Made by a program: the position numbers and the translations under genes
Shown: positions 5,366 to 55,492 of the stretch, in pieces
Layout: each line of letters opens with the position of its first letter
Numbering within the stretch: position 1 is the stretch's first letter
Notes under the pieces: generated by a model
What the model was told of the DNA's origin: nothing
Databases searched by the model: none
What the model saw: only the letters and a program-made list of their open reading frames with translations
NCBI GenBank assembly: GCA_045534575.1
Contig: JAZSJZ010000006.1
Location: forward strand, 14,374 to 78,373
DNA: 64,000 nt
Reading direction: 5' to 3'
From: Christensenellaceae bacterium
Lineage (GTDB): Bacteria > Bacillota > Clostridia > Christensenellales > Borkfalkiaceae

Positions 5366-6457
5366 ATGAAATACTTGCTTGATAAAACTATGCGCCCAGC
5401 GTATTTGCAAATTTATAAACTTATTCGAGAAGATATAATAAATGAAATTTATCCGTATAATAGCAAATTGCCGTCAAAGAGGCTTCTTAGCGAAGAACTT
5501 GGCGTTAGCACCATAACGGTCGAACATGCTTATGCGTTGCTTATAGACGAAGGATATATTGAGGCTAGAGAGCGAAGCGGTTTTTTCGTTATTTTTAAAA
5601 AGTGTGATGGTTTTGCCGTTTCAAATGAGGAGCTAACACATCACAAAATTGCATTGCAATCAAGTAACAGCCATCCAGATTTTCCTTTTTCATTGCTAGC
5701 AAAAACAATGCGAAAAGTTTTATTAGATTACGCCCAAGATATCCTTCAAAAATCTCCAAATCTAGGGTGCGATGAACTAAGGTGCGCCATTAAACAATAT
5801 CTTATTCGCAACCGAGGCATGAACGTAGATATCAATCAAATCGTTATAGGCTCTGGCGCGGAATATCTTTACGGGCTTATTATCGCTATGCTTGGAAGAG
5901 ATCAAATATATGCTATTGAATCGCCGTCCTATATGAAAATTGAACAAGTTTATAGCGCTGAAGGCGTGGAATATGAATTGCTTCCTTTAAAGCGCGACGG
6001 AATAGAAAGTATGGCGCTATCTCTAACAAAAGCAACCGTTCTTCACACAACGCCTTATAGAAGTTTTCCAACGGGCATAACGGCTTCGGCAAATAAACGG
6101 CACGAATACGTGCGCTGGGCAAAAGAAAATGGGCGAATTATTATTGAGGATGATTTCGAATCGGAGTTTTCAGTTTCGTCAAAGCCACAAGATACGCTTT
6201 TTTCTCTTTCATCGGATGATAACGTAATTTACCTTAACACGTTTTCGAAAACTATTTCTCCAGCGCTCCGCGTTGGCTATATGGTTCTTCCAAAGCGTTT
6301 AGTTGATAAGTTTGAGGAAAAACTTGGGTTTTACTCTTGCACCGTTCCAACGTTCGAACAATACGTTTTATATGAACTAATTAGTAGCGGCGATTTTGAA
6401 AGGCATATAAATCGCGTTAGAAGGCATAAGCGAAAAGAACTTGTTGTAAAAAATTAA
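5366..6457 (+). CDS. MocR-subfamily GntR regulator (wHTH plus aminotransferase-fold domain), apparently C-terminally short
   Basis: N-terminal GntR wHTH (KLPSKRLLSEELGVSTITVEHAY), fold-type-I domain with PLP lysine context NTFSKTISPALRVGY. Ends at HINRVRRHKRKEL, where family members normally continue for about 80-100 aa. Confidence 0.75.
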   Translation: MKYLLDKTMRPAYLQIYKLIREDIINEIYPYNSKLPSKRLLSEELGVSTITVEHAYALLIDEGYIEARERSGFFVIFKKCDGFAVSNEELTHHKIALQSSNSHPDFPFSLLAKTMRKVLLDYAQDILQKSPNLGCDELRCAIKQYLIRNRGMNVDINQIVIGSGAEYLYGLIIAMLGRDQIYAIESPSYMKIEQVYSAEGVEYELLPLKRDGIESMALSLTKATVLHTTPYRSFPTGITASANKRHEYVRWAKENGRIIIEDDFESEFSVSSKPQDTLFSLSSDDNVIYLNTFSKTISPALRVGYMVLPKRLVDKFEEKLGFYSCTVPTFEQYVLYELISSGDFERHINRVRRHKRKELVVKN

Positions 6458-6463
6458 AAATGC

Positions 6464-6481
6464 TGATAACGGGCTTATAGG
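6464..6481 (+). repeat. intergenic repeat copy b (TGATAACGGGCTTATAGG)
   Basis: Starts 7 nt after the MocR stop; its 3' G-run (ATAGGGGG) sits at RBS distance from the barstar ATG. Confidence 0.8.
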
Positions 6482-6492
6482 GGGACTATTAT

Positions 6493-6774
6493 ATGAAAAA
6501 GTATATTTTTGAAAGAGAAGAATTTAAGTGGGCGGAAGAATTTTATGAGGTTATTAAAAGAAAAATGGAATTGCCAGATTATTTTGGCTCTAATGCTGAC
6601 GCTCTTTGGGATATGTTGACGGGTTTTATTGAAACGCCGTGTGAAATTGTTTTAATTGGTTTTGATAGAGAAGAAAATGAATATAATAAAAATATGTTAA
6701 AACGAATTATCTCTTGTTTTGAAACGGCTGAAAAAGAGTTTCCAGATCAATTTAAAATTACGAAAATAAATTAA
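6493..6774 (+). CDS. barstar-family ribonuclease inhibitor (orphan)
   Basis: 93 aa; ELPDYFGSNADALWDMLTG closely matches the barstar core (LPEYYGENLDALWDCLTG). No barnase-like gene adjacent. Confidence 0.8.
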   Translation: MKKYIFEREEFKWAEEFYEVIKRKMELPDYFGSNADALWDMLTGFIETPCEIVLIGFDREENEYNKNMLKRIISCFETAEKEFPDQFKITKIN

Positions 6775-6902: not shown

Positions 6903-6931
6903 TTGACAACAAAAAAAATTAGTGCTAGAAT
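6903..6931 (+). promoter_or_regulatory. sigma-A-type promoter of the T-box operon
   Basis: TTGACA (6903-6908), 17 nt spacer, TAGAAT (6926-6931). Confidence 0.55.
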
Positions 6932-6937
6932 AACAAA

Positions 6938-7199
6938 AATTAAAAGGCTATGACGAAGACGGTTTGAAAAGGCGTTTCCAGAGAGTCGGTGGGTGGTGTG
7001 AACCGACAACAAGTTTTCAAAAACTTATCACTTCCGAGCCGAAACCCAAAAGCGAAAGCAAGTAGGCGTTTCCGTGAATCTGCGTAAATGAAGCGGAATT
7101 GTTAGATTCCTAAGTGGCGAAGAAATTCGCAATTTGAGTGGTACCACGAGTAGTATTTTACCCGTCTCAAAGTGTTCTTTGAGGCGGGTTTTGTTTTTT
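6938..7199 (+). promoter_or_regulatory. T-box leader (tRNA-sensing riboswitch), specifier best read as AUC (Ile)
   Basis: K-turn GACGAAG, AGAGAG, distal-loop GGUGUGAA, AGCGAAAGCAAGUAG, T-box GAGUGGUACCACGAG (7136-7150), terminator CCCGTCTCAAAG/CTTTGAGGCGGG plus T-run (7161-7199). AUC-A (7027-7030) lies directly 5' of CUUC, which pairs with GAAG 6955-6958. Confidence 0.85.
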
Positions 7200-7257
7200 G
7201 CCAAAGGTTTTAATTTTACCTTTCGGCTAGCCAAATCGGCAAAAAAGGAGAAAAAAA

Positions 7258-9522
7258 ATGTCAACAGTATCTCGCGAAAAACTTTTAGAAGTTGCCAAGC
7301 GCATAAAAGAAATGCGCCTCATTTTTGGTTACACTTTTGATGATATGGCAAAGCTTACCGACGTTTCCGTTAAAGAGTTTAGAGAACTAGAAAGCGGAAA
7401 GGTAGATTTCCCTTTTTCATTTATTCATAAGTGTGCGCAAGCCTTCAACATTGGCATTACCGACCTTTTGGAAGGTAGAAGCGCCAATCTTTCTACATAT
7501 ACCGTCATAAGGCGTGGTCAAGGTCAAGAAACGGCTAAAGAAAAGGGCATTGAAATTAAAAACCTTGCTCCTAACTTTAGAGATAAACTTTCTCAGCCTT
7601 ACTTTGTTAAATACGAAGCCGCAAAAGACGAAACTGCGCCTATCAACCTTGCAACTCACTCAGGGCAAGAGTTTGACTTTGTTTTAAAGGGCAAGTTAAA
7701 GGTTCAAATCGGCGGGCACGTTGAAGTTTTAGGTGAGGGCGATAGCATATATTATAATAGTTCGCAACCGCACGGGATGATTGCTATCGGCGGGGAAGAC
7801 TGTGAGTTCTTAGCCGTTGTTTTAGCAGGCGAAGAAATCAAGGAAGAGAACGAAAGAGAAATAATCGTATCGTCTAAATCCGAGCAAAAACTCGTGTGCG
7901 AGAAGTTTATCTCTACCAAAGAAGACGAAAACGGCGCGCTTGAATCAATCGAGTTTAAGAACACTGAAGTTTTCAACTTCGGCTTTGACGTGGTTGATAA
8001 AATTGCCGATAAATATCCAGATAAACTCGCGCTTTTGCACCTTGATAAAAACAAGGTTGAAAGAAGGTTTACCTTTAAAGATATTAAGCGCCTTTCAAAT
8101 CAAGTGGCTAACTATTTCACCTCGCTTGGCATTAAGCGTGGCGATAAGGTTATGCTCGTTTTAAAACGCCACTATCAATTCTGGCCTATCATGGTTGCTC
8201 TTCATAAACTCGGCGCGGTGGCAATTCCTGCAACCAATCAGTTAAAAAAGCACGATTTTGAATACCGTTTCAATGCTGCGGGCGTTAAGGCTATCGTTTG
8301 CACTGCCGATGGCGACACTGCAGATATCGCTGAAGAGGCAACAAAGAGTTGCCCTCAAGTTGAGTGCAAAATTATGGTTGGCGAAACGGTAAGGCTTGGC
8401 TGGCACGATTTCAACGTTGAGAGTGCGCTTTTCACTCGTGAGTTTAAACGCACGCAAGATACTTCTTGTGGCGACGATATCGCTCTAATGTTCTTCACTT
8501 CTGGAACGACGGGCAACCCTAAAATGGCTGCGCACAAGCACACCTACGCTTTAGGGCATTTCGTAACGGCAAAATATTGGCACTGTTGCGAAAGAGACGG
8601 GCTTCATCTCACTATTTCGGATACGGGCTGGGGCAAATCGCTTTGGGGCAAACTTTACGGGCAATGGCTTTGCGAGGGCGCTGTGTTCGTTTACGATTTT
8701 GATAAATTTGACGAAAACGATATTTTGCCAATGTTTGCTAAATATCAAATCACCACGTTCTGCGCTCCGCCAACTATGCTTAGGATGCTTATTCGTGGCG
8801 ATTTATCTAAGTTCGATTTAACTTCTATCCACCATATGACGACTGCTGGCGAGGCGTTAAACCCAGAAGTTTTCAAGCAGTTCAAGAACGCTACGGGCTT
8901 AGAAATTATGGAAGGCTTTGGTCAAACCGAAACGACGCTCACCATTGCAAACCTTGTTGGCGGTGCGCCAAAGATTGGCTCAATGGGCAAGGCTTCACCG
9001 CAGTATGATATCGATATTATTGACGCTGAAGGTAAATCCGTTGCAACGGGCGAGGTTGGCGAAATCGTTATAAGAACTAGCAACGGCGCGCCTTGCGGTC
9101 TGTTTAAAGAATATTATCTTGACGACGAGAAAACTAGCGAAGCGTGGTATGACGGCGTTTATCACACCGGCGATACCGCTTGGCGTGATGAAGATGGCTA
9201 TTTCTTCTACGTTAGCCGTATTGATGATGTTATCAAATCTTCAGGTTATAGAATCGGGCCTTTCGAAATCGAAAGCGTTATTATGGAACTTCCTTACGTT
9301 GTTGAGTGTGGTGTTTCTGCCGTTCCAGACGAAGTTCGCGGTCAAGTGGTTAAGGCTAGCATCGTTCTAACCAAAGGCACTGAGCCAACTGAAGAGTTGA
9401 AAAAGGAAATTCAAAATTACGTAAAAAAGAACACCGCGCCTTATAAATATCCGCGCGTTATCGTGTTCAAAGACGAACTTCCAAAAACCATTAGCGGAAA
9501 AATTCAACGCAATAAACTTTAA
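7258..9522 (+). CDS. fusion protein: XRE-type HTH + cupin + AMP-forming acyl-CoA synthetase (ANL family)
   Basis: 754 aa. N-terminal HTH (FGYTFDDMAKLTDVSVKEFRELESGK), cupin (HSGQEFDFVLKGK...PHGM), then FFTSGTTGNPK, GFGQTETT, YHTGDTA, PKTISGKIQR adenylate-forming motifs. AAGGAG RBS. Confidence 0.85.
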   Translation: MSTVSREKLLEVAKRIKEMRLIFGYTFDDMAKLTDVSVKEFRELESGKVDFPFSFIHKCAQAFNIGITDLLEGRSANLSTYTVIRRGQGQETAKEKGIEIKNLAPNFRDKLSQPYFVKYEAAKDETAPINLATHSGQEFDFVLKGKLKVQIGGHVEVLGEGDSIYYNSSQPHGMIAIGGEDCEFLAVVLAGEEIKEENEREIIVSSKSEQKLVCEKFISTKEDENGALESIEFKNTEVFNFGFDVVDKIADKYPDKLALLHLDKNKVERRFTFKDIKRLSNQVANYFTSLGIKRGDKVMLVLKRHYQFWPIMVALHKLGAVAIPATNQLKKHDFEYRFNAAGVKAIVCTADGDTADIAEEATKSCPQVECKIMVGETVRLGWHDFNVESALFTREFKRTQDTSCGDDIALMFFTSGTTGNPKMAAHKHTYALGHFVTAKYWHCCERDGLHLTISDTGWGKSLWGKLYGQWLCEGAVFVYDFDKFDENDILPMFAKYQITTFCAPPTMLRMLIRGDLSKFDLTSIHHMTTAGEALNPEVFKQFKNATGLEIMEGFGQTETTLTIANLVGGAPKIGSMGKASPQYDIDIIDAEGKSVATGEVGEIVIRTSNGAPCGLFKEYYLDDEKTSEAWYDGVYHTGDTAWRDEDGYFFYVSRIDDVIKSSGYRIGPFEIESVIMELPYVVECGVSAVPDEVRGQVVKASIVLTKGTEPTEELKKEIQNYVKKNTAPYKYPRVIVFKDELPKTISGKIQRNKL

Positions 9523-9526
9523 TAAT

Positions 9527-10957
9527 ATGAAAAAAACTTTTGTTACGAATATGCCCAATCATATAGGAGCATTCTTGAAGGCGAGCAAATGTTTTTCTAA
9601 ATTAGGTGTAAATATAACCAGAGTAAGCTACAACAAAGCGGTTGATTCGCATACTTTATTTATCGACGTTGATGGTGAAGAAAACGCGCTTGAGAAAGCA
9701 ACGGAAATGTTAAATAAAATAGGCTATCTTTCAAACGAACAACAAAAAAGCAAGGTGGTTTTAATTGAGTTTCGTTTGAAAGATTGTCCCGGTAGCGTTA
9801 CTGCTGTTTTAGAACTTATAAGTAAGTTTAACCTTAATATTTCGTATATCAGTTCTCAAGAAAACGGAAGTGGCTATCAGTTTTTCAAGATGGGTTTATA
9901 CGTTAGCGATTCATTAACTTTAACTGAATTTTTGGCGCAAGCTCAAATGCTTTGTCAGGTTAGAATTGTGGATTATAATAATACTGAAAAGGTTTTTGAT
10001 AATAGCATATTCTATAACACATACGTAGATGGGCTTGTAAAAACAATGAAGCTTTCATCAAAAATGAAAGAAAGTTTATTAGTTAACGTTAATCTTGCAA
10101 TGCAAACACTTGATGAAACTGGGCTTTCACCATATAAAACTTTTGACAGTATAAGTAAATTTGCAGAACTTTTAGCAGAATGCAGAGGAAAAAACTTTAA
10201 CCCTAGAATAACTGAGCACATTATTACTGAAAAGACCAAGATAACTTTGATAGAGCCTGATTGCGGTAGTAATATGGCAATTATAGAAAGCGACGGCGAA
10301 AGGGTTTTCGTCGATTCTGGTTATGCTTGTTATCGACAAGAAATGCTTAAACTGTTGAAACGATTGGTTCCTGACTTTAACAAAGAGAAAATTGTTGTAA
10401 CTCACGCCGACGTTGACCATTGTGGGCTATTAAACGAGTTTAGCGAGGTTATTACAAGTCAAAGAACAGCAGAATGTTTGATTGCGGAAGCCGAAAATAA
10501 TGAAGGCTTTAGAGAAAACAATGCGTTACACAAGCCTTACGTTAATATCTGCAAGATTTTGACTGGTTATAAGCCTATAGATAGGTCAAAATTGCGTCCG
10601 CAATGGAACAAATCAAAGTTCAATTTAGATATAGAACAAATAGGTTTTTTTTCAGTTGGAGAGCTTTGTTTTGAGGTTTACGAAGGCAAGGGAGGGCATC
10701 TTTTAGGAGAAATTGTGCTTATTGATTTTAAGCACAAGGTTGCATTTACTGGTGATATTTTTATAAATTTAAACGATTTAACGAAAAAACAAGCTGAATA
10801 TAATAAATATGCTCCTATTTTAATGACTTCGGTTGATACAAATTCTAATCTTTGCGCGCAAGAGCGCATTTCTTTTCTACAAAGATTAGGCGCTGGAACG
10901 TGGAATATATTTGGTGGCCACGGACAAAAAAAGATATATCAAACACAAAAAATATAA
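9527..10957 (+). CDS. tandem ACT-domain protein fused to an MBL-fold hydrolase domain
   Basis: 476 aa. Two ACT-like beta-alpha-beta-beta-alpha-beta units at the N-terminus (HIGAFLKASKCFSKLGVNI; CPGSVTAVLELISKFNLNI). C-terminal MBL fold has THADVDHCG in place of canonical HxHxDH. Starts 4 nt after the upstream stop. Confidence 0.7.
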   Translation: MKKTFVTNMPNHIGAFLKASKCFSKLGVNITRVSYNKAVDSHTLFIDVDGEENALEKATEMLNKIGYLSNEQQKSKVVLIEFRLKDCPGSVTAVLELISKFNLNISYISSQENGSGYQFFKMGLYVSDSLTLTEFLAQAQMLCQVRIVDYNNTEKVFDNSIFYNTYVDGLVKTMKLSSKMKESLLVNVNLAMQTLDETGLSPYKTFDSISKFAELLAECRGKNFNPRITEHIITEKTKITLIEPDCGSNMAIIESDGERVFVDSGYACYRQEMLKLLKRLVPDFNKEKIVVTHADVDHCGLLNEFSEVITSQRTAECLIAEAENNEGFRENNALHKPYVNICKILTGYKPIDRSKLRPQWNKSKFNLDIEQIGFFSVGELCFEVYEGKGGHLLGEIVLIDFKHKVAFTGDIFINLNDLTKKQAEYNKYAPILMTSVDTNSNLCAQERISFLQRLGAGTWNIFGGHGQKKIYQTQKI

Positions 10958-11045
10958 TAGTAAACGTAAGCTAAAAAAATTTTTTTGTTAAATATTGTGG
11001 CGTTTTTTACCCTCAATATATTATAAAAACTAAAGCAAAAATCGT

Positions 11046-11063
11046 CGATAATCGACCTATAGC
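11046..11063 (+). repeat. intergenic repeat copy d (CGATAATCGACCTATAGC)
   Basis: Subtype 2 core, preceded by GCAAAAATCGT and overlapping the following terminator stem. Confidence 0.75.
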
Positions 11064-11093
11064 CCCGCTTTTTTGCTAAAAGCGGGGCTTTTT
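11061..11093 (+). terminator. intrinsic terminator of the T-box operon
   Basis: AGCCCCGCTTTT/AAAAGCGGGGCT stem followed by TTTTT. Confidence 0.75.
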
Positions 11094-11314
11094 CGTGCGT
11101 AAATTTTCATTTTTTAAAACGGGAAACCCAAAAAATGCTCGCAAATTAAATTCAAACGGCAAATAAATTTTATATCAAAGGCTATTTCAAAATGTTGTCA
11201 AAATTTATATCTATCATAATTCCCCGCCCAAAATCTTACAGCGCAAAAAAATTGTAGATTTTTGCTTTTTGTCAGTTTTCTATTGACTTTTGTCACGTTG
11301 TAATATAAAATGTG

Positions 11315-11335
11315 TTATGTAATATTATTACATAA
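11315..11335. promoter_or_regulatory. 21-bp perfect palindrome in the glycan-locus leader (candidate operator or 5'-UTR hairpin)
   Basis: TTATGTAATA-T-TATTACATAA, 10-bp perfect arms, just downstream of a TTGACT-17-TAAAAT promoter-like sequence (11283-11311). Confidence 0.3.
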
Positions 11336-11420
11336 TGACAAAATAGCGTTATGAATATCATTTAACGTTTAGTCATGCAACGGAAAAATAAAGAAGTTTT
11401 AAGGAGAAAAGTCTTAGATT

Positions 11421-12185
11421 ATGACTAATGAAAAAACTTACAAGTTGAAATTTGGACAAAAGATTTATCGTTTCATTAAAGCGATGATGGATTTTCTAAT
11501 TGCTTTAGTGGCGTTAATTGTTTTATCGCCAGTGTTTTTAATCGTAGCAATTGCAATAAAAATTGATTCTCGTGGTCCCGTTTTCTTCGTTCAAAAAAGA
11601 ATAGGTAAAAACGGAAAACTATTTAATTGCATTAAGTTTAGAAGCATGTCAGTTGAAGCACGTCATGACGTTGCTGGCTACGAATATGCTAACGTTACGG
11701 CGTATATCACGAAGGTTGGTAAGGTTATTAGAAAGTTGAGTATCGACGAATTGCCTCAATTTATAAACATTTTAACCTTTAAAATGAGTTTGATTGGTTA
11801 TAGACCATCGCAACCAACGGAGAACGAATTGAACGATGCTCGTGAAAGTTACGACGTATATCAAGTTCGTCCTGGTATTTCTGGCTGGGCTCAAGTTAAT
11901 GGTAGAGACGTTTTAGCGGCAAACCCAAAGAAAAAAGCGCAGTTTGATGCTTACTATTTAGAGCATTTTTCGCTATGGTTAGATATTAAAATATTCTTCA
12001 AGACGATAATCCAAGTTTTCAAGAGCGAAGGCGTGGAAGAGGGCGTAATTAACAACGAGCAAGAAGATGACGCCACTAATGCTAGCCAAGAACCTGCGAG
12101 CATTGAAGAAGTGGCAATTACCGATTCCGTAACAACCGAAATTATCGACACCCTCGAAAGTGACGAAAAAAAAGAAGTCGTTTAA
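11421..12185 (+). CDS. initiating sugar-phosphate transferase (bacterial sugar transferase family, WbaP/EpsL-like)
   Basis: One N-terminal TM, then SRGPVFFVQKRIGKNGKLFNCIKFRSM, DELPQFINIL, RPGISGWAQVNGR motifs. Confidence 0.85.
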   Translation: MTNEKTYKLKFGQKIYRFIKAMMDFLIALVALIVLSPVFLIVAIAIKIDSRGPVFFVQKRIGKNGKLFNCIKFRSMSVEARHDVAGYEYANVTAYITKVGKVIRKLSIDELPQFINILTFKMSLIGYRPSQPTENELNDARESYDVYQVRPGISGWAQVNGRDVLAANPKKKAQFDAYYLEHFSLWLDIKIFFKTIIQVFKSEGVEEGVINNEQEDDATNASQEPASIEEVAITDSVTTEIIDTLESDEKKEVV

Positions 12186-13854: not shown

Positions 13855-14952
13855 GTGAAAAAAGTTATGTTTTTAATGACTCATCTTGGCGGAGTAGGCT
13901 GGGGTGGTGCGCATAAAATTACAGCTATGCTTGCAAATTTTCTTGCTGAAAATGGGTATGATGTTTCCATTGCGGTATCTCAAAAAAGTCGCATTGACTT
14001 TGAAATAAACAAAAACATAAAATTGTTTTACCTAGACGAACTTTTCAAAAGACCTAAATTTAGACCATTTTATTTTTTGAAGAAATTAGCAACGTTTCGT
14101 AAGTTATGCAAATCTCAAAAAATTGATTACGTTGTAGGATTTATTTCGAGCGTAGCGATATATTCTATACTTGCATGTGTGTTTTCAAAGAGAAAAGTAT
14201 TGGTTTCAGAAAGAACTGATCCGCACTTTGAGCCGAGCAAAAAGGTGTTAAGAGGGCTAAGAAATTTAGTTTTTTGTTTTGCTGACAAAATAGTTTTTCA
14301 AACGCCAGGCGCAAGAGATTATTATCCTAAAATTGTAAGGAAAAAGAGTTCTATAATTCCTAATCCAATATCAGATTCTTTACCTGAACCATATTTTGGC
14401 GAAAGGCAAAAGAAAATTGTTAATTTTTGCAGAATTGCGCCACAAAAGAATTTAAAGGTATTGTTAGAAGCATTTGATATCTTTTCAAAAACTCACCAAG
14501 ATTTTATTCTTGAAATTTATGGTGACGGGAAAGAGGGAAGTGATTACGTTGAGTCTGTTAAAAATTACGCTAAAAGTTTAAGTTCTTGCGATAAAATTTG
14601 TTTTTACCCAGCGTGTTCGGACGTTCATGAAAAAATAAAAGACGCAACGGCTTTCGCTTCTTCATCAGATTATGAGGGAATATCAAATTCTATGTTAGAG
14701 GCGTTGGCGATAGGCTTGCCCGTTATTGTTACCGATTGTCAAAACGGGGGCGAGCGAATGTGCATTGAAAATGGCAAAAGCGGAATAATTGTTCAAAGGC
14801 AAAATCCAGAAGAATTAGCTGAAGGATTGGCAAAAATAGCTGATGATAAAGAGTTTTCTGAGTTAATTTCTAAAAATGCGATTGAAATAAGAGAAAAGTT
14901 TTCGAAAGACAAAATATTTGATTTATGGGCTAAGACTTTTGAGAACTTGTAA
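13855..14952 (+). CDS. glycosyltransferase family 4 (GT-B fold)
   Basis: C-terminal SSSDYEGISNSMLEALAIGLPVIVTD matches the E(x7)E GT4 signature. Confidence 0.85.
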   Translation: MKKVMFLMTHLGGVGWGGAHKITAMLANFLAENGYDVSIAVSQKSRIDFEINKNIKLFYLDELFKRPKFRPFYFLKKLATFRKLCKSQKIDYVVGFISSVAIYSILACVFSKRKVLVSERTDPHFEPSKKVLRGLRNLVFCFADKIVFQTPGARDYYPKIVRKKSSIIPNPISDSLPEPYFGERQKKIVNFCRIAPQKNLKVLLEAFDIFSKTHQDFILEIYGDGKEGSDYVESVKNYAKSLSSCDKICFYPACSDVHEKIKDATAFASSSDYEGISNSMLEALAIGLPVIVTDCQNGGERMCIENGKSGIIVQRQNPEELAEGLAKIADDKEFSELISKNAIEIREKFSKDKIFDLWAKTFENL

Positions 14953-53761: not shown

Positions 53762-55126
53762 TTAAAGTTTTGGGAGTTTATCAATGCTAACCTTTAGTTC
53801 CTCGTCGGTTGGCACGTAGTTTTCCATAATGCCGTCGTTAAACTTTTGGTAGGCATACATATCGAAATAGCCCGTTCCCGTCAAACCAAACACGATAGTT
53901 TTTGCTTCGCCTGTTTCTTTGCACTTTAACGCCTCGTCAATGGCAACCTTTATTGCGTGAGAAGATTCAGGCGCTGGCAAAATGCCTTCAACCTTAGCAA
54001 ACGTTTGAGCCGCTTCGAAAACTTCGGTTTGAGTTACCGAGCGCGCTTCCATAAGTTTATCATCGTAAAGTTGAGATAAAACCGAACTCATTCCGTGGTA
54101 TCTTAAACCGCCGGCGTGGTTAGCGGCAGGAATATAGGAACTGCCGAGGGTATACATTTTAGCAAGTGGGCAAACACGACCAGTGTCGCAATAGTCGTAA
54201 GCGTAAACGCCACGGGTAAGGGTTGGGCAAGACGCAGGCTCAACCGCAATCAAGCGGTAATTTTTCTCGCCACGAATCATTTCGCCGGCAAACGGAGAGA
54301 TAAGTCCGCCAAGATTAGAGCCACCGCCCGCGCAACCGATAATAATATCAGGCGTTATGCCGTATTTATCGAGCGCAGTTTTGGTTTCTAAGCCGATAAC
54401 CGTTTGGTGAAGAAGAACTTGGTTTAAAACCGAGCCTAAAACGTAGCGATAGCCGTCTTTAGAGGTAGCACATTCAACCGCTTCCGAAATAGCGCAACCA
54501 AGGCTACCCGTAGTTCCCGGAAACTCAGCGTTAATCTGCCTACCAACTGAAGTTAGCATAGAAGGCGAAGGGGTAACTGAAGCGCCGTAAGTTCTCATAA
54601 CTTCGCGCCTAAACGGTTTTTGCTCGTAAGAACACTTAACCATAAAAACTTCGCAGTTTAGGTCTAAATAAGCGCACGCCATTGAAAGCGCCGTGCCCCA
54701 TTGCCCCGCTCCCGTTTCGGTGGTAACGCCCTTTAAGCCTTGCTTTTTAGCATAGTATGCTTGAGCGATTGCCGAGTTTAACTTGTGGCTACCCGAAGTG
54801 TTGTTGCCCTCGAACTTATAATAAATATGCGCCGGCGTTTGAAGTTTTTGCTCTAAGCAATAAGCCCTAACCAAAGGCGATGGGCGATACATTTTGTAAA
54901 AATCACGAATTTCTTCAGGGATTTCAAAAAATCTAGTAGTATCGTCAAGTTCTTGCTTAGCAAGTTCTTGGCAGAAAACTTTTGAAAGGTCATCTAGCGT
55001 TGCCTCTTTGCCCGTTTGCGGGTTTAAAAGCGGAGCGGGCTTGTTAATCATATCGGCCCTTAGGTTATACCAATATTTTGGCATTTCGCTCTCTTCGAGA
55101 TAAATTTTGTAAGGAACGTCTTTCAT
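53762..55126 (-). CDS. trpB: TrpB2-type tryptophan synthase beta-like PLP enzyme (stand-alone)
   Basis: 454 aa, long TrpB2-type N-terminus (PKYWYNLRADM), PLP lysine GSHKLNSA, GGGSNLGG. No trpA or other trp genes nearby. Confidence 0.88.
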   Translation of the reverse strand: MKDVPYKIYLEESEMPKYWYNLRADMINKPAPLLNPQTGKEATLDDLSKVFCQELAKQELDDTTRFFEIPEEIRDFYKMYRPSPLVRAYCLEQKLQTPAHIYYKFEGNNTSGSHKLNSAIAQAYYAKKQGLKGVTTETGAGQWGTALSMACAYLDLNCEVFMVKCSYEQKPFRREVMRTYGASVTPSPSMLTSVGRQINAEFPGTTGSLGCAISEAVECATSKDGYRYVLGSVLNQVLLHQTVIGLETKTALDKYGITPDIIIGCAGGGSNLGGLISPFAGEMIRGEKNYRLIAVEPASCPTLTRGVYAYDYCDTGRVCPLAKMYTLGSSYIPAANHAGGLRYHGMSSVLSQLYDDKLMEARSVTQTEVFEAAQTFAKVEGILPAPESSHAIKVAIDEALKCKETGEAKTIVFGLTGTGYFDMYAYQKFNDGIMENYVPTDEELKVSIDKLPKL

Positions 55127-55229: not shown

Positions 55230-55492
55230 AAAATAAAAAAGCCCAAGAACAAAAGTTCTTGGGACGATATTTACCGTGGTGCCACCCAATTTCTTGCAAA
55301 ACTGCAACTTACTTCATACTAACATATGAATTGCGCTTTAACGGACGCAACCCGTCAATTACTACTTGCTTTCGCTTTCGATTGCCCTCATAAGCCCATT
55401 CGCCATACCGCCCTTATCGTGCTCACACCGCCCACAACTCGCTGAAAAGTTAAAGTAAGGTTACTATCCTTAATCATAGGTTTAATAAATTG
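55230..55492 (-). promoter_or_regulatory. T-box leader, UGG (Trp) specifier
   Basis: On the minus strand: GAUUAAGGAUAGUAA, CAGCGAG, GGCGGUGUGAGC, GAA-UGG-G specifier (UGG = complement of 55396-55398), AGCGAAAGCAAGUAG, T-box GGGUGGCACCACGG (55274-55287), terminator CCCAAGAAC/GTTCTTGGG plus U-run (55231-55263). Confidence 0.88.

Follow-up and report, generated by a model that had tools for sequence, protein, structure and literature searches.

An operon behind an isoleucine T-box, probably serving the salvage of 2-methylbutyrate, in a Christensenellaceae bacterium

In the genome of a Christensenellaceae bacterium (assembly GCA_045534575.1), two adjacent genes are preceded by a T-box leader whose specifier codon is that of isoleucine, and together they form what is probably an isoleucine-starvation-induced salvage operon, in which an acyl-CoA ligase would activate 2-methylbutyrate for its rebuilding into isoleucine. 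The operon lies on contig JAZSJZ010000006.1, in a stretch of 64,000 nucleotides (positions 14,374 to 78,373 of the forward strand) that is called the window here in its whole length and to whose positions the coordinates refer. Its first gene, open reading frame 1 (ORF1), encodes a 754-residue fusion of an XRE-type helix-turn-helix (HTH) domain, a cupin and an AMP-forming acyl-CoA synthetase, and ORF2, which starts 4 nt past the stop codon of ORF1, encodes a 476-residue protein with two ACT domains and a metallo-beta-lactamase (MBL) fold. An original prediction, made from the letters of the DNA, had pointed to this arrangement. It was followed up in about 110 related loci, namely 32 genome loci retrieved with ORF2 and 80 metagenome loci retrieved with the HTH-cupin module, for which at least 568 matching loci exist. 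One locus (L001, in JAZNBE01) is a 99% match to the locus of the window. The arrangement of leader and genes is found again in over 100 independent loci, so that it cannot be put down to chance.

The promoter and the T-box leader

The operon begins with a sigma-70 type promoter at 6903-6931 on the forward strand, which matches 11 of the 12 consensus positions and consists of TTGACA (6903-6908), a 17-nt spacer and the extended -10 element TGcTAGAAT with the hexamer at 6926-6931. Most homologous leaders are likewise preceded by a consensus-like promoter. The leader RNA follows at 6941-7172 (+) with Stem I, the Stem II region, Stem III and the antiterminator, and it matches the Rfam family RF00230 over the full length of the model (1-219) with 101.4 bits (gathering score 93, E 3e-21), so that the good promoter and the complete T-box of the original prediction were both borne out. 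The 5' strand of the Stem I basal helix, GAAG, stands beside the K-turn GA motif at 6955-6958 (+), and in the Rfam alignment G6955-A-A-G6958 faces C7031-U-U-C7034 as its pairing partner, which places the codon slot at A7027-U7028-C7029. The specifier codon AUC (7027-7029, +) is thus followed by A7030 and then directly by the 3' strand CUUC (7031-7034).

Further downstream, the T-box sequence AGUGGUACCACG occupies 7137-7148 (+), with a UGGU bulge that is predicted to pair with the 3' end of the tRNA (A73-CCA), and its columns are invariant in the leader alignment A1. The intrinsic terminator of the leader (7160-7199, +), a 13-bp hairpin at 7160-7189 with a U tract, is the alternative to the antiterminator; the hairpin has a fold energy of -27.2 kcal/mol (z = -4.2), and none of 200 shuffled sequences folded equally well. 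The leader therefore has what characterizes RF00230: the score, the position of the specifier, the UGGN bulge, and antiterminator and terminator helices that exclude each other. When Stem I was folded by itself with ViennaRNA, the canonical T-box fold was not recovered (z = +1.2), and as calculations of folding energy are uninformative for this Stem I with its K-turn, the register was taken from the covariance model and from compensatory base changes.

These changes come from the related loci, where the HTH-cupin-ligase fusions form two clades. Clade I, to which ORF1 belongs, has 52-80% identity to ORF1, and clade II has 47-63% identity to ORF1 and 52-70% to the clade-II paralogue encoded at 9868-12150 of locus L005. 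The clade-II gene usually lies directly 3' of the clade-I gene and has its own promoter and its own T-box. In clade I, the codon slot is ATC in all of the 64 parsed leaders, and in the parsed leaders of clade II it holds valine codons, GTA in 23 cases and GTC in one. AUC is found also in four leaders that precede an MBL gene only (L009-L012). The basal helix varies in a compensatory manner among the homologous leaders (GAAG/CUUC, GGAG/CUCC, GAAA/UUUC, GCGG/CCGC, GGAA/UUCC), which fixes the codon register independently of Rfam. The specifier of the leader is that of isoleucine, as had been predicted from its place directly 5' of CUUC. The leucine codon CUU three nucleotides upstream of AUC, which had been named as the only alternative, could be ruled out, as homologues have CTT, CCC, CCT, CAG or CGG at that place. 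Two apparent TGG specifiers (L079, L082) were artefacts of leaders that are cut by the edge of the locus.

The ligase domain of ORF1

ORF1 (7258-9522, +), a clade-I member with Pfam, PDB and NCBIfam matches, has its AMP-forming acyl-CoA synthetase region at residues 248-748 (nt 7999-9501, +), composed of AMP-binding (PF00501, residues 248-620, 219 bits) and AMP-binding_C (PF13193, residues 670-748, 77 bits). The core motifs of the ANL family are present with SGTTG at residue 415, YHTGD at residue 635, and PKTISGKIQR at residues 742-751, the latter including the C-terminal catalytic lysine. In the PDB, the best match of the domain by far is 3ETC with 616 bits (E 5e-184, 51.6% identity over 529 columns), followed by a 4-hydroxybutyrate-CoA ligase with 355 bits and ACSM2A with 329 bits. 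The entry 3ETC is MacsMa of Methanosarcina acetivorans, an enzyme that completes its two-step reaction preferentially with 2-methylbutyrate and that has an alternate pocket tryptophan, the critical Trp259 (PMC10455477). ORF1 has the motif TAKYW at residues 437-441, and its W441 is aligned with the tryptophan of the MacsMa TAKYW.

Among the NCBIfam models, MbcS (NF047394) matches ORF1 best. MbcS of Staphylococcus aureus is a selective enzyme that accepts 2-methylbutyrate and isobutyrate but neither isovalerate nor acetate (PMC10026030), and its two acids are the very pair that corresponds to isoleucine and valine. With 3ETC and MbcS as best matches, and not acetyl- or aryl-CoA ligases, the comparison supports a grouping of the predicted ligase with activators of short branched acids, in line with the branched-acid substrate that had been proposed, and ORF1 is most likely a 2-methylbutyrate--CoA ligase. 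Residues that are fixed differently in clades I and II group around the pocket region (A431P, L451F, G459A, S461A); this would fit a smaller substrate of clade II but is only suggestive.

A route from branched acids to amino acids

Many rumen and gut anaerobes need isobutyrate and 2-methylbutyrate or benefit from them, and labelling work since the 1960s has demonstrated that valine and isoleucine are formed from these acids by carboxylation. For Methanobrevibacter ruminantium, the reductive carboxylation of 2-methylbutyrate has been proposed as the route to isoleucine (PMC2812497). The original prediction had invoked this chemistry for the present operon, and strong comparative support for it came from the valine T-box clade of paralogues described above, from linked vorDBAC genes and, in locus L005, from ilvE.

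Pathway neighbours were searched by tblastn with the proteins of locus L061. In most related loci, a MinD/Mrp-like P-loop protein of 220-231 residues is encoded 3' of the ligase genes, and after it, in about a dozen loci and wherever the downstream sequence is long enough, come the genes of the alpha and beta subunits of a 2-oxoacid:ferredoxin oxidoreductase. The alpha subunit reaches 551-555 bits with the VorB model NF005507 (cut-off 399). It is usually the clade-II gene that is followed by the P-loop protein gene and vorDBAC, which encodes a 2-ketoisovalerate-type ferredoxin oxidoreductase (VOR), and as the gap between the clade-II gene and the P-loop gene is only 0-40 nt in many loci, VOR is probably read from the promoter of the valine T-box. 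In loci that have the clade-I ligase gene alone, the vor genes have their own promoter. A vor promoter lies, for example, at 7304-7332 of L061. The most complete order is that of L005, where an isoleucine T-box (98.6 bits) is followed by the clade-I ligase gene, the ACT-ACT-MBL gene, a valine T-box (92.1 bits), the clade-II ligase gene, the P-loop gene, vorD, vorB, the beta and gamma subunit genes and ilvE, the last of which was confirmed by family search (NF009897, 481 bits, cut-off 307). By its gene annotations, a set of this type encodes the full route from the acid via the acyl-CoA and the 2-oxoacid to the amino acid.

Transcription of the operon in the window would start at the consensus-like promoter and enter the AUC leader, where uncharged tRNA-Ile(GAU) would pair with the specifier and, by its acceptor end, with the UGGU bulge, as is established for T-boxes. 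Binding of the tRNA would favour the antiterminator over the terminator at 7160-7189, and ORF1 and ORF2 would be read only when tRNA-Ile is poorly charged. ORF1 would then convert exogenous 2-methylbutyrate, ATP and CoA to 2-methylbutyryl-CoA; a VorDBAC that is presumed to be encoded elsewhere in the genome would reductively carboxylate this to 3-methyl-2-oxopentanoate; and IlvE would transaminate the latter to isoleucine. In relatives, the clade-II ligase behind its valine T-box would likewise serve the conversion of isobutyrate to valine. For an AMP-forming ligase that is induced by uncharged tRNA, only an anabolic function is sensible. Both VOR and IlvE are reversible, and their best-known setting is amino acid fermentation; one could therefore think of a catabolic or energy-conserving direction, in which isoleucine and valine are degraded via IlvE, VOR and the acyl-CoA with a reversal of the AMP-forming enzyme. 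However, to induce the breakdown of isoleucine or valine in response to the uncharged tRNA would make no regulatory sense, and AMP-forming ligases are effectively irreversible in vivo, fermenters using Ptb/Buk or ADP-forming enzymes instead, so that this direction is extremely improbable.

Another fate of 2-methylbutyryl-CoA deserves more attention. It could mainly serve FabH as the primer from which anteiso branched-chain fatty acids are made, as with MbcS in S. aureus, and the isoleucine T-box would then reflect that isoleucine is the normal source of the primer. MbcS, the top NCBIfam model of ORF1, has its documented role in branched-chain fatty acid synthesis (PMC10026030, PMC11167679), and no VOR or IlvE gene adjoins the operon of the window. 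On the other hand, the ligase genes of relatives cluster with vorDBAC, often in an operon, and in L005 also with ilvE; the clade-II copy answers to the charging of tRNA-Val; and the strict split with one amino acid per paralogue is what a supply of amino acids predicts, and not a tuning of the membrane. A predominant function in lipid priming is thus unlikely, although the two roles are not mutually exclusive.

Several observations weigh against a salvage of 2-methylbutyrate for isoleucine as proposed here. In the 64-kb window, neither a VOR or other 2-oxoacid:ferredoxin oxidoreductase gene nor a P-loop or clade-II gene was found by tblastn, and for this genome the pathway is thus deduced by homology with other genomes. 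With 435 bits, ORF1 misses the equivalog cut-off of the MbcS model (850) and so is not an MbcS orthologue. T-boxes usually have a purine directly 3' of the specifier, whereas a C stands there in 21 of the 82 leaders with a parsed basal helix; among the 54 isoleucine leaders with a parsed basal helix, the base after the codon is A in 28, C in 21 and G in 5, and a base other than A is found in L004, L005, L027, L011, L012 and many metagenome loci. A regex scan left about eight fusion genes without a T-box motif. For ORF2, Foldseek returned only generic MBL structures, with BcII and an uncharacterised MBL as the best, and in many lineages, methanogens among them, its family occurs with neither a T-box nor a ligase and in contexts that are uninformative. 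All parsed leaders of fusion genes are of the isoleucine or valine type. A specifier for an amino acid other than a branched-chain one, a ligase of an unrelated class, and a T-box-free pair with another function had been named as findings that would speak against the original prediction, and none of the three was encountered.

Side by side with these genes, further elements were seen in the related loci. The P-loop NTPase gene between the ligase genes and vorD (12483-13145 in L005, 7494-8189 in L061) has weak matches to MinD, Mrp and ParA, and its product may serve VOR as a maturation or Fe-S factor. In L005, the clade-I ligase gene and the MBL gene are separated by a spacer of about 440 nt (7558-8000) with two copies of a repeat of about 45 nt; a riboswitch was sought in this spacer with Rfam, which returned none, leaving a repeated element only, and a similar sequence recurs after the clade-II gene in L005, L024 and L027. 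In L086 (510-4567), as well as in L080, L085, L087-L090, L093 and L107, a T-box motif and a gene for a LeuA/CimA-like synthase are located directly 5' of the isoleucine T-box and the clade-I ligase gene, and the LeuA/CimA-like gene is followed by one for an 840-residue fusion of a xylose-isomerase-like TIM barrel and an ANL ligase. Finally, an Oscillospiraceae metagenome-assembled genome (MAG) has in L028 (12680-17416) a UAC (Tyr) T-box 5' of a gene for a 563-residue acyl-CoA ligase and a UUC (Phe) T-box 5' of an oxidoreductase alpha-like gene, a pair that may be an aromatic counterpart from arylacetate to phenylalanine or tyrosine.

The ACT-ACT-MBL protein ORF2

ORF2 (9527-10957, +) has ACT domains at residues 2-64 and 76-147, a helical linker at residues 162-218 and the MBL fold at residues 227-473. 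Its length, its start 4 nt after ORF1, the two ACT domains, the MBL fold and the motif THADVDH (residues 292-298) had all been noted before, and the Pfam matches and an AlphaFold model agree with this. Lactamase_B (PF00753) matches residues 245-414 with 44 bits; the two ACT matches are marginally below the Pfam threshold (26.7 vs 27 bits), and homologues carry PF01842, PF22629, PF13291 and PF00585. The AlphaFold model, built from 32 sequences (pLDDT 86), has beta-alpha-beta-beta-alpha-beta units at residues 2-64 and 76-147, a three-helix linker and an MBL sandwich. The metal motif H293-x-D295-x-D297-H298 (nt 10403-10420, +) is accompanied by H391, D410 and H465, and in 32 family members down to 21% identity the residues D263, G265, T292-H293-x-D295-x-D297-H298, G389-G390-H391, D410 and G464-H465-G466 are invariant or nearly so. 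All five MBL motif positions are filled, motif 2 being a variant in which the second histidine of HxHxDH is replaced by aspartate, and as judged by these positions the MBL domain carries the full ligand set of a binuclear site.

The ACT-ACT-MBL family is compact and constant in its architecture; at 50% identity, the 1.8 billion representatives contain 568 of its clusters. The pair that it forms with the ligase is not conserved: a clade-I ligase gene is found immediately 5' of the MBL gene in only 17 of the 32 genome loci, a Christensenellaceae-like subset, and in none of the 80 metagenome loci that had been retrieved via the HTH-cupin module is an MBL gene present. In L009-L012, the MBL gene stands alone behind its own AUC T-box (the leader of L009 has 87.6 bits, E 1e-19), and three close MBL homologues have no T-box. 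Distant homologues stand alone, among others in Methanosarcina, Methanoregula and Methanocorpusculum, and the neighbours of five of the distant ones (Methanosarcina, Methanoregula and three Clostridia) were unrelated. Its association with the ligase is not fixed, and the MBL protein is rather a lineage-specific accessory of the isoleucine regulon.

Some members of the family weakly match the model of the IlvA regulatory domain (PF00585) and the ACT model of the acetohydroxyacid synthase small subunit, which points to a branched-chain amino acid as ligand, and the tandem-ACT module thus probably senses such an amino acid. For the MBL domain itself, generic MBL relatives were all that came out of the sequence search in the PDB, the profile search and Foldseek. 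According to the original prediction, ORF2 could be a counter-activity under amino acid control, which would mean an acyl-CoA thioesterase that undoes the work of the ligase when isoleucine is replete. The MBL fold does include thioesterases such as glyoxalase II, the profile of the family has weak matches to hydroxyacylglutathione hydrolases (E about 1e-6), which rank among those to beta-lactamases, lactonases and RNases, the tandem ACT domains at the N-terminus would suit the gating, and in L010 a gene for a MaoC-like hotdog dehydratase (9459-9887) lies 19 nt 3' of the MBL gene. A brake for times of isoleucine plenty is hard to reconcile, however, with the solo MBL copies behind an isoleucine-starvation T-box in L009-L012; MBL is missing from most ligase loci, and many genomes have it without an adjacent ligase; the motif is HxDxDH and not the HxHxDH of glyoxalase II; and no similarity to glyoxalase II or MBL thioesterases beyond the generic MBL level was found. 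Such a counter-activity is distinctly unlikely. As the MBL protein is independently under isoleucine-starvation control, it is likelier that it helps the supply of isoleucine than that it undoes the ligase reaction, and the best guess is a hydrolase that frees a precursor or clears mis-activated acyl-adenylates or thioesters. MacsMa releases non-cognate acyl-adenylates (PMC10455477), and one may speculate that a partner hydrolase could clear these.

The ligands of ORF2 also permit a different idea, in which it is not a hydrolase but a di-iron redox or sensor protein of the flavodiiron/ODP kind, coupled to amino acid sensing. The site of flavodiiron and ODP proteins is HxExDH, that of glyoxalase II-type hydrolases HxHxDH, and the succession H-x-D-x-D-H, H, D and H in ORF2 is the flavodiiron/ODP ligand pattern with aspartate in place of glutamate. 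There are weak matches to the ODP Pfam model (25.5 bits), to flavorubredoxin and to the ODP structure 6qrq, and in L029 a flavodoxin gene (7456-7941) overlaps the start of the MBL homologue. Yet all these matches are below threshold or generic, the flavodoxin is of the BilS type and found in one locus only, and such chemistry has no obvious link to isoleucine supply, so that a di-iron protein is quite improbable, and a hydrolase that acts for isoleucine supply is preferred.

Stand-alone ACT-ACT-MBL genes were seen in Methanosarcina sp. WH1 (CP009504, L113) and in Methanoregula (L114), so that the architecture occurs in the very group, the methanogens, from which the Macs with a preference for 2-methylbutyrate was characterised. 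The MAG JAFVWA01 has an MBL gene in a cluster (L020) and a solo MBL gene behind a T-box (L011), and the MAG JAZUSI01 has two pairs of clade-I ligase and MBL genes (L003, L006); the two copies are either real paralogues or strain mixtures in the bins.

The HTH-cupin module of ORF1

The remaining part of ORF1 agrees with the predicted order of an HTH domain, a cupin and the synthetase. The XRE-type HTH (residues 14-73, nt 7297-7476, +) matches HTH_19 with 25.8 bits, which is under the Pfam cut-off of 30.2, and XRE proteins of the PDB match at 1e-4; homologues carry PF12844 and PF01381. The cupin (residues 132-188, nt 7651-7821, +) matches Cupin_2 with 53 bits, above the cut-off, and has a possible His/Glu/His triad with H134, E138 and H172. 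Clades I and II both keep the HTH-cupin module, its HTH residues being invariant, and it must thus be under selection. A palindrome or operator shared across 80 promoter regions was sought and not found, palindromes being lineage-restricted (for example L054, L055 and L057). The module probably adds a second layer of control, by DNA binding or by ligand sensing on the enzyme in a loosely BirA-like manner, and the trigger-enzyme role that had been suggested for the fusion is plausible.

If both proteins are considered together, the fusion might be a BirA-like trigger enzyme and the ACT-ACT-MBL protein an enzyme, shared by Clostridia and methanogens, that senses branched-chain amino acids and is required for the anaerobic supply of isoleucine, a combined scheme that is tentative and on balance rather doubtful. 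In case it is true, the HTH-cupin module would make transcription, either of its own operon or of the vor operon, depend on whether the branched acid, or the adenylate formed from it, is available; combined with the T-box, it would form an AND gate that opens when there is a demand for the amino acid and also a supply of its precursor; and the ACT-ACT-MBL protein might proofread acyl-adenylates or thioesters or release the precursor.

Other features of the window

The two-gene operon ends with a strong intrinsic terminator at 11061-11089 (+), which has a 12-bp stem with 7 GC pairs and a T tract, and the genes 3' of it belong to an unrelated polysaccharide cluster. On the 5' side (5366-6774), there are genes for a PdxR-like MocR regulator, which at 363 residues ends some 90 positions before the family profile does, and for a barstar-like protein of 93 residues, beside which no barnase was identified. 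A second T-box leader lies on the reverse strand at 55257-55486 (112 bits), with UGG (Trp) in the codon slot by the Rfam register, and it is located 5' of the gene of a TrpB-like pyridoxal-phosphate enzyme (53762-55126, reverse strand; NF009057, 673 bits, cut-off 366).

Significance and comparison with known systems

T-box control, ligases of the Macs/MbcS type, VOR, IlvE, and ACT and MBL domains are all of known kinds. The original prediction did not recognise their combination as a described system, and in the literature searched, which left most subscription journals outside, no publication was found on the HTH-cupin-ligase fusion, on its split between isoleucine and valine T-boxes together with a VOR cluster, or on the ACT-ACT-MBL family as a member of an isoleucine regulon. 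The databases name the proteins merely "AMP-binding protein" and "MBL fold metallo-hydrolase". The operon and its relatives offer candidates for the activating enzymes and the regulation in Clostridia, an assignment of genes that was not found in the literature searched, and they would give genes to a route that has been known from physiology for sixty years. As there are two ligases near VOR, each marked by a T-box codon with the amino acid that it would serve, the pathway is directly testable, and the genes could be a marker with which cross-feeding of branched-chain acids is scored in gut and rumen metagenomes. Two uncharacterised architectures are flagged, the HTH-cupin-ligase fusion and the ACT-ACT-MBL protein with its HxDxDH site, and the T-boxes for tyrosine and phenylalanine at a ligase and an oxidoreductase gene in L028 hint that a tRNA-gated salvage by reductive carboxylation may be a wider theme.

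With the T-box operons of Firmicutes for branched-chain amino acids or aminoacyl-tRNA synthetases, such as ileS and ilv-leu of Bacillus subtilis, the operon shares the RF00230 architecture and a specifier that matches the amino acid supplied; here, however, the controlled genes encode an HTH-cupin-ligase and an ACT-ACT-MBL protein, and neither enzymes of de novo synthesis (ilv) nor a synthetase or a transporter, and paralogous ligases are divided between isoleucine and valine T-boxes. MacsMa resembles ORF1 with 51.6% identity across the catalytic region, the TAKYW tryptophan and the PKTISGK lysine motif; it has no N-terminal HTH-cupin module and no T-box control, and the preference for 2-methylbutyrate was measured for MacsMa and is predicted for ORF1. 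The two acids of MbcS of S. aureus, the top NCBIfam model, are those that the split between isoleucine and valine T-boxes predicts, but MbcS is one enzyme for a lipid primer, whereas here VOR, and in L005 also IlvE, is linked with two paralogues that are apparently specialised. The reductive carboxylation of rumen bacteria and methanogens by the VOR route has the identical order of reactions, and VorDBAC and IlvE are clustered in L005; that route is known from labelling and growth requirements, while here a dedicated and presumably tRNA-gated gene cluster comes with its own activating ligases.

The other likenesses concern single modules. An HTH fused to an adenylate-forming enzyme is known from BirA and trigger enzymes and is predicted here from the sequence, and the layout of XRE-HTH and cupin is that of one-component regulators of the PuuR type, which is only a lead. 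A tandem of ACT domains in front of a metal-dependent catalytic domain is found also in ACT-ACT-hydrolases such as the mycobacterial SerB2. With glyoxalase II and the flavodiiron/ODP proteins, ORF2 shares the five MBL motif positions, its match to them being generic only, and it differs from them by having HxDxDH where glyoxalase II has HxHxDH and the flavodiiron/ODP proteins have HxExDH.

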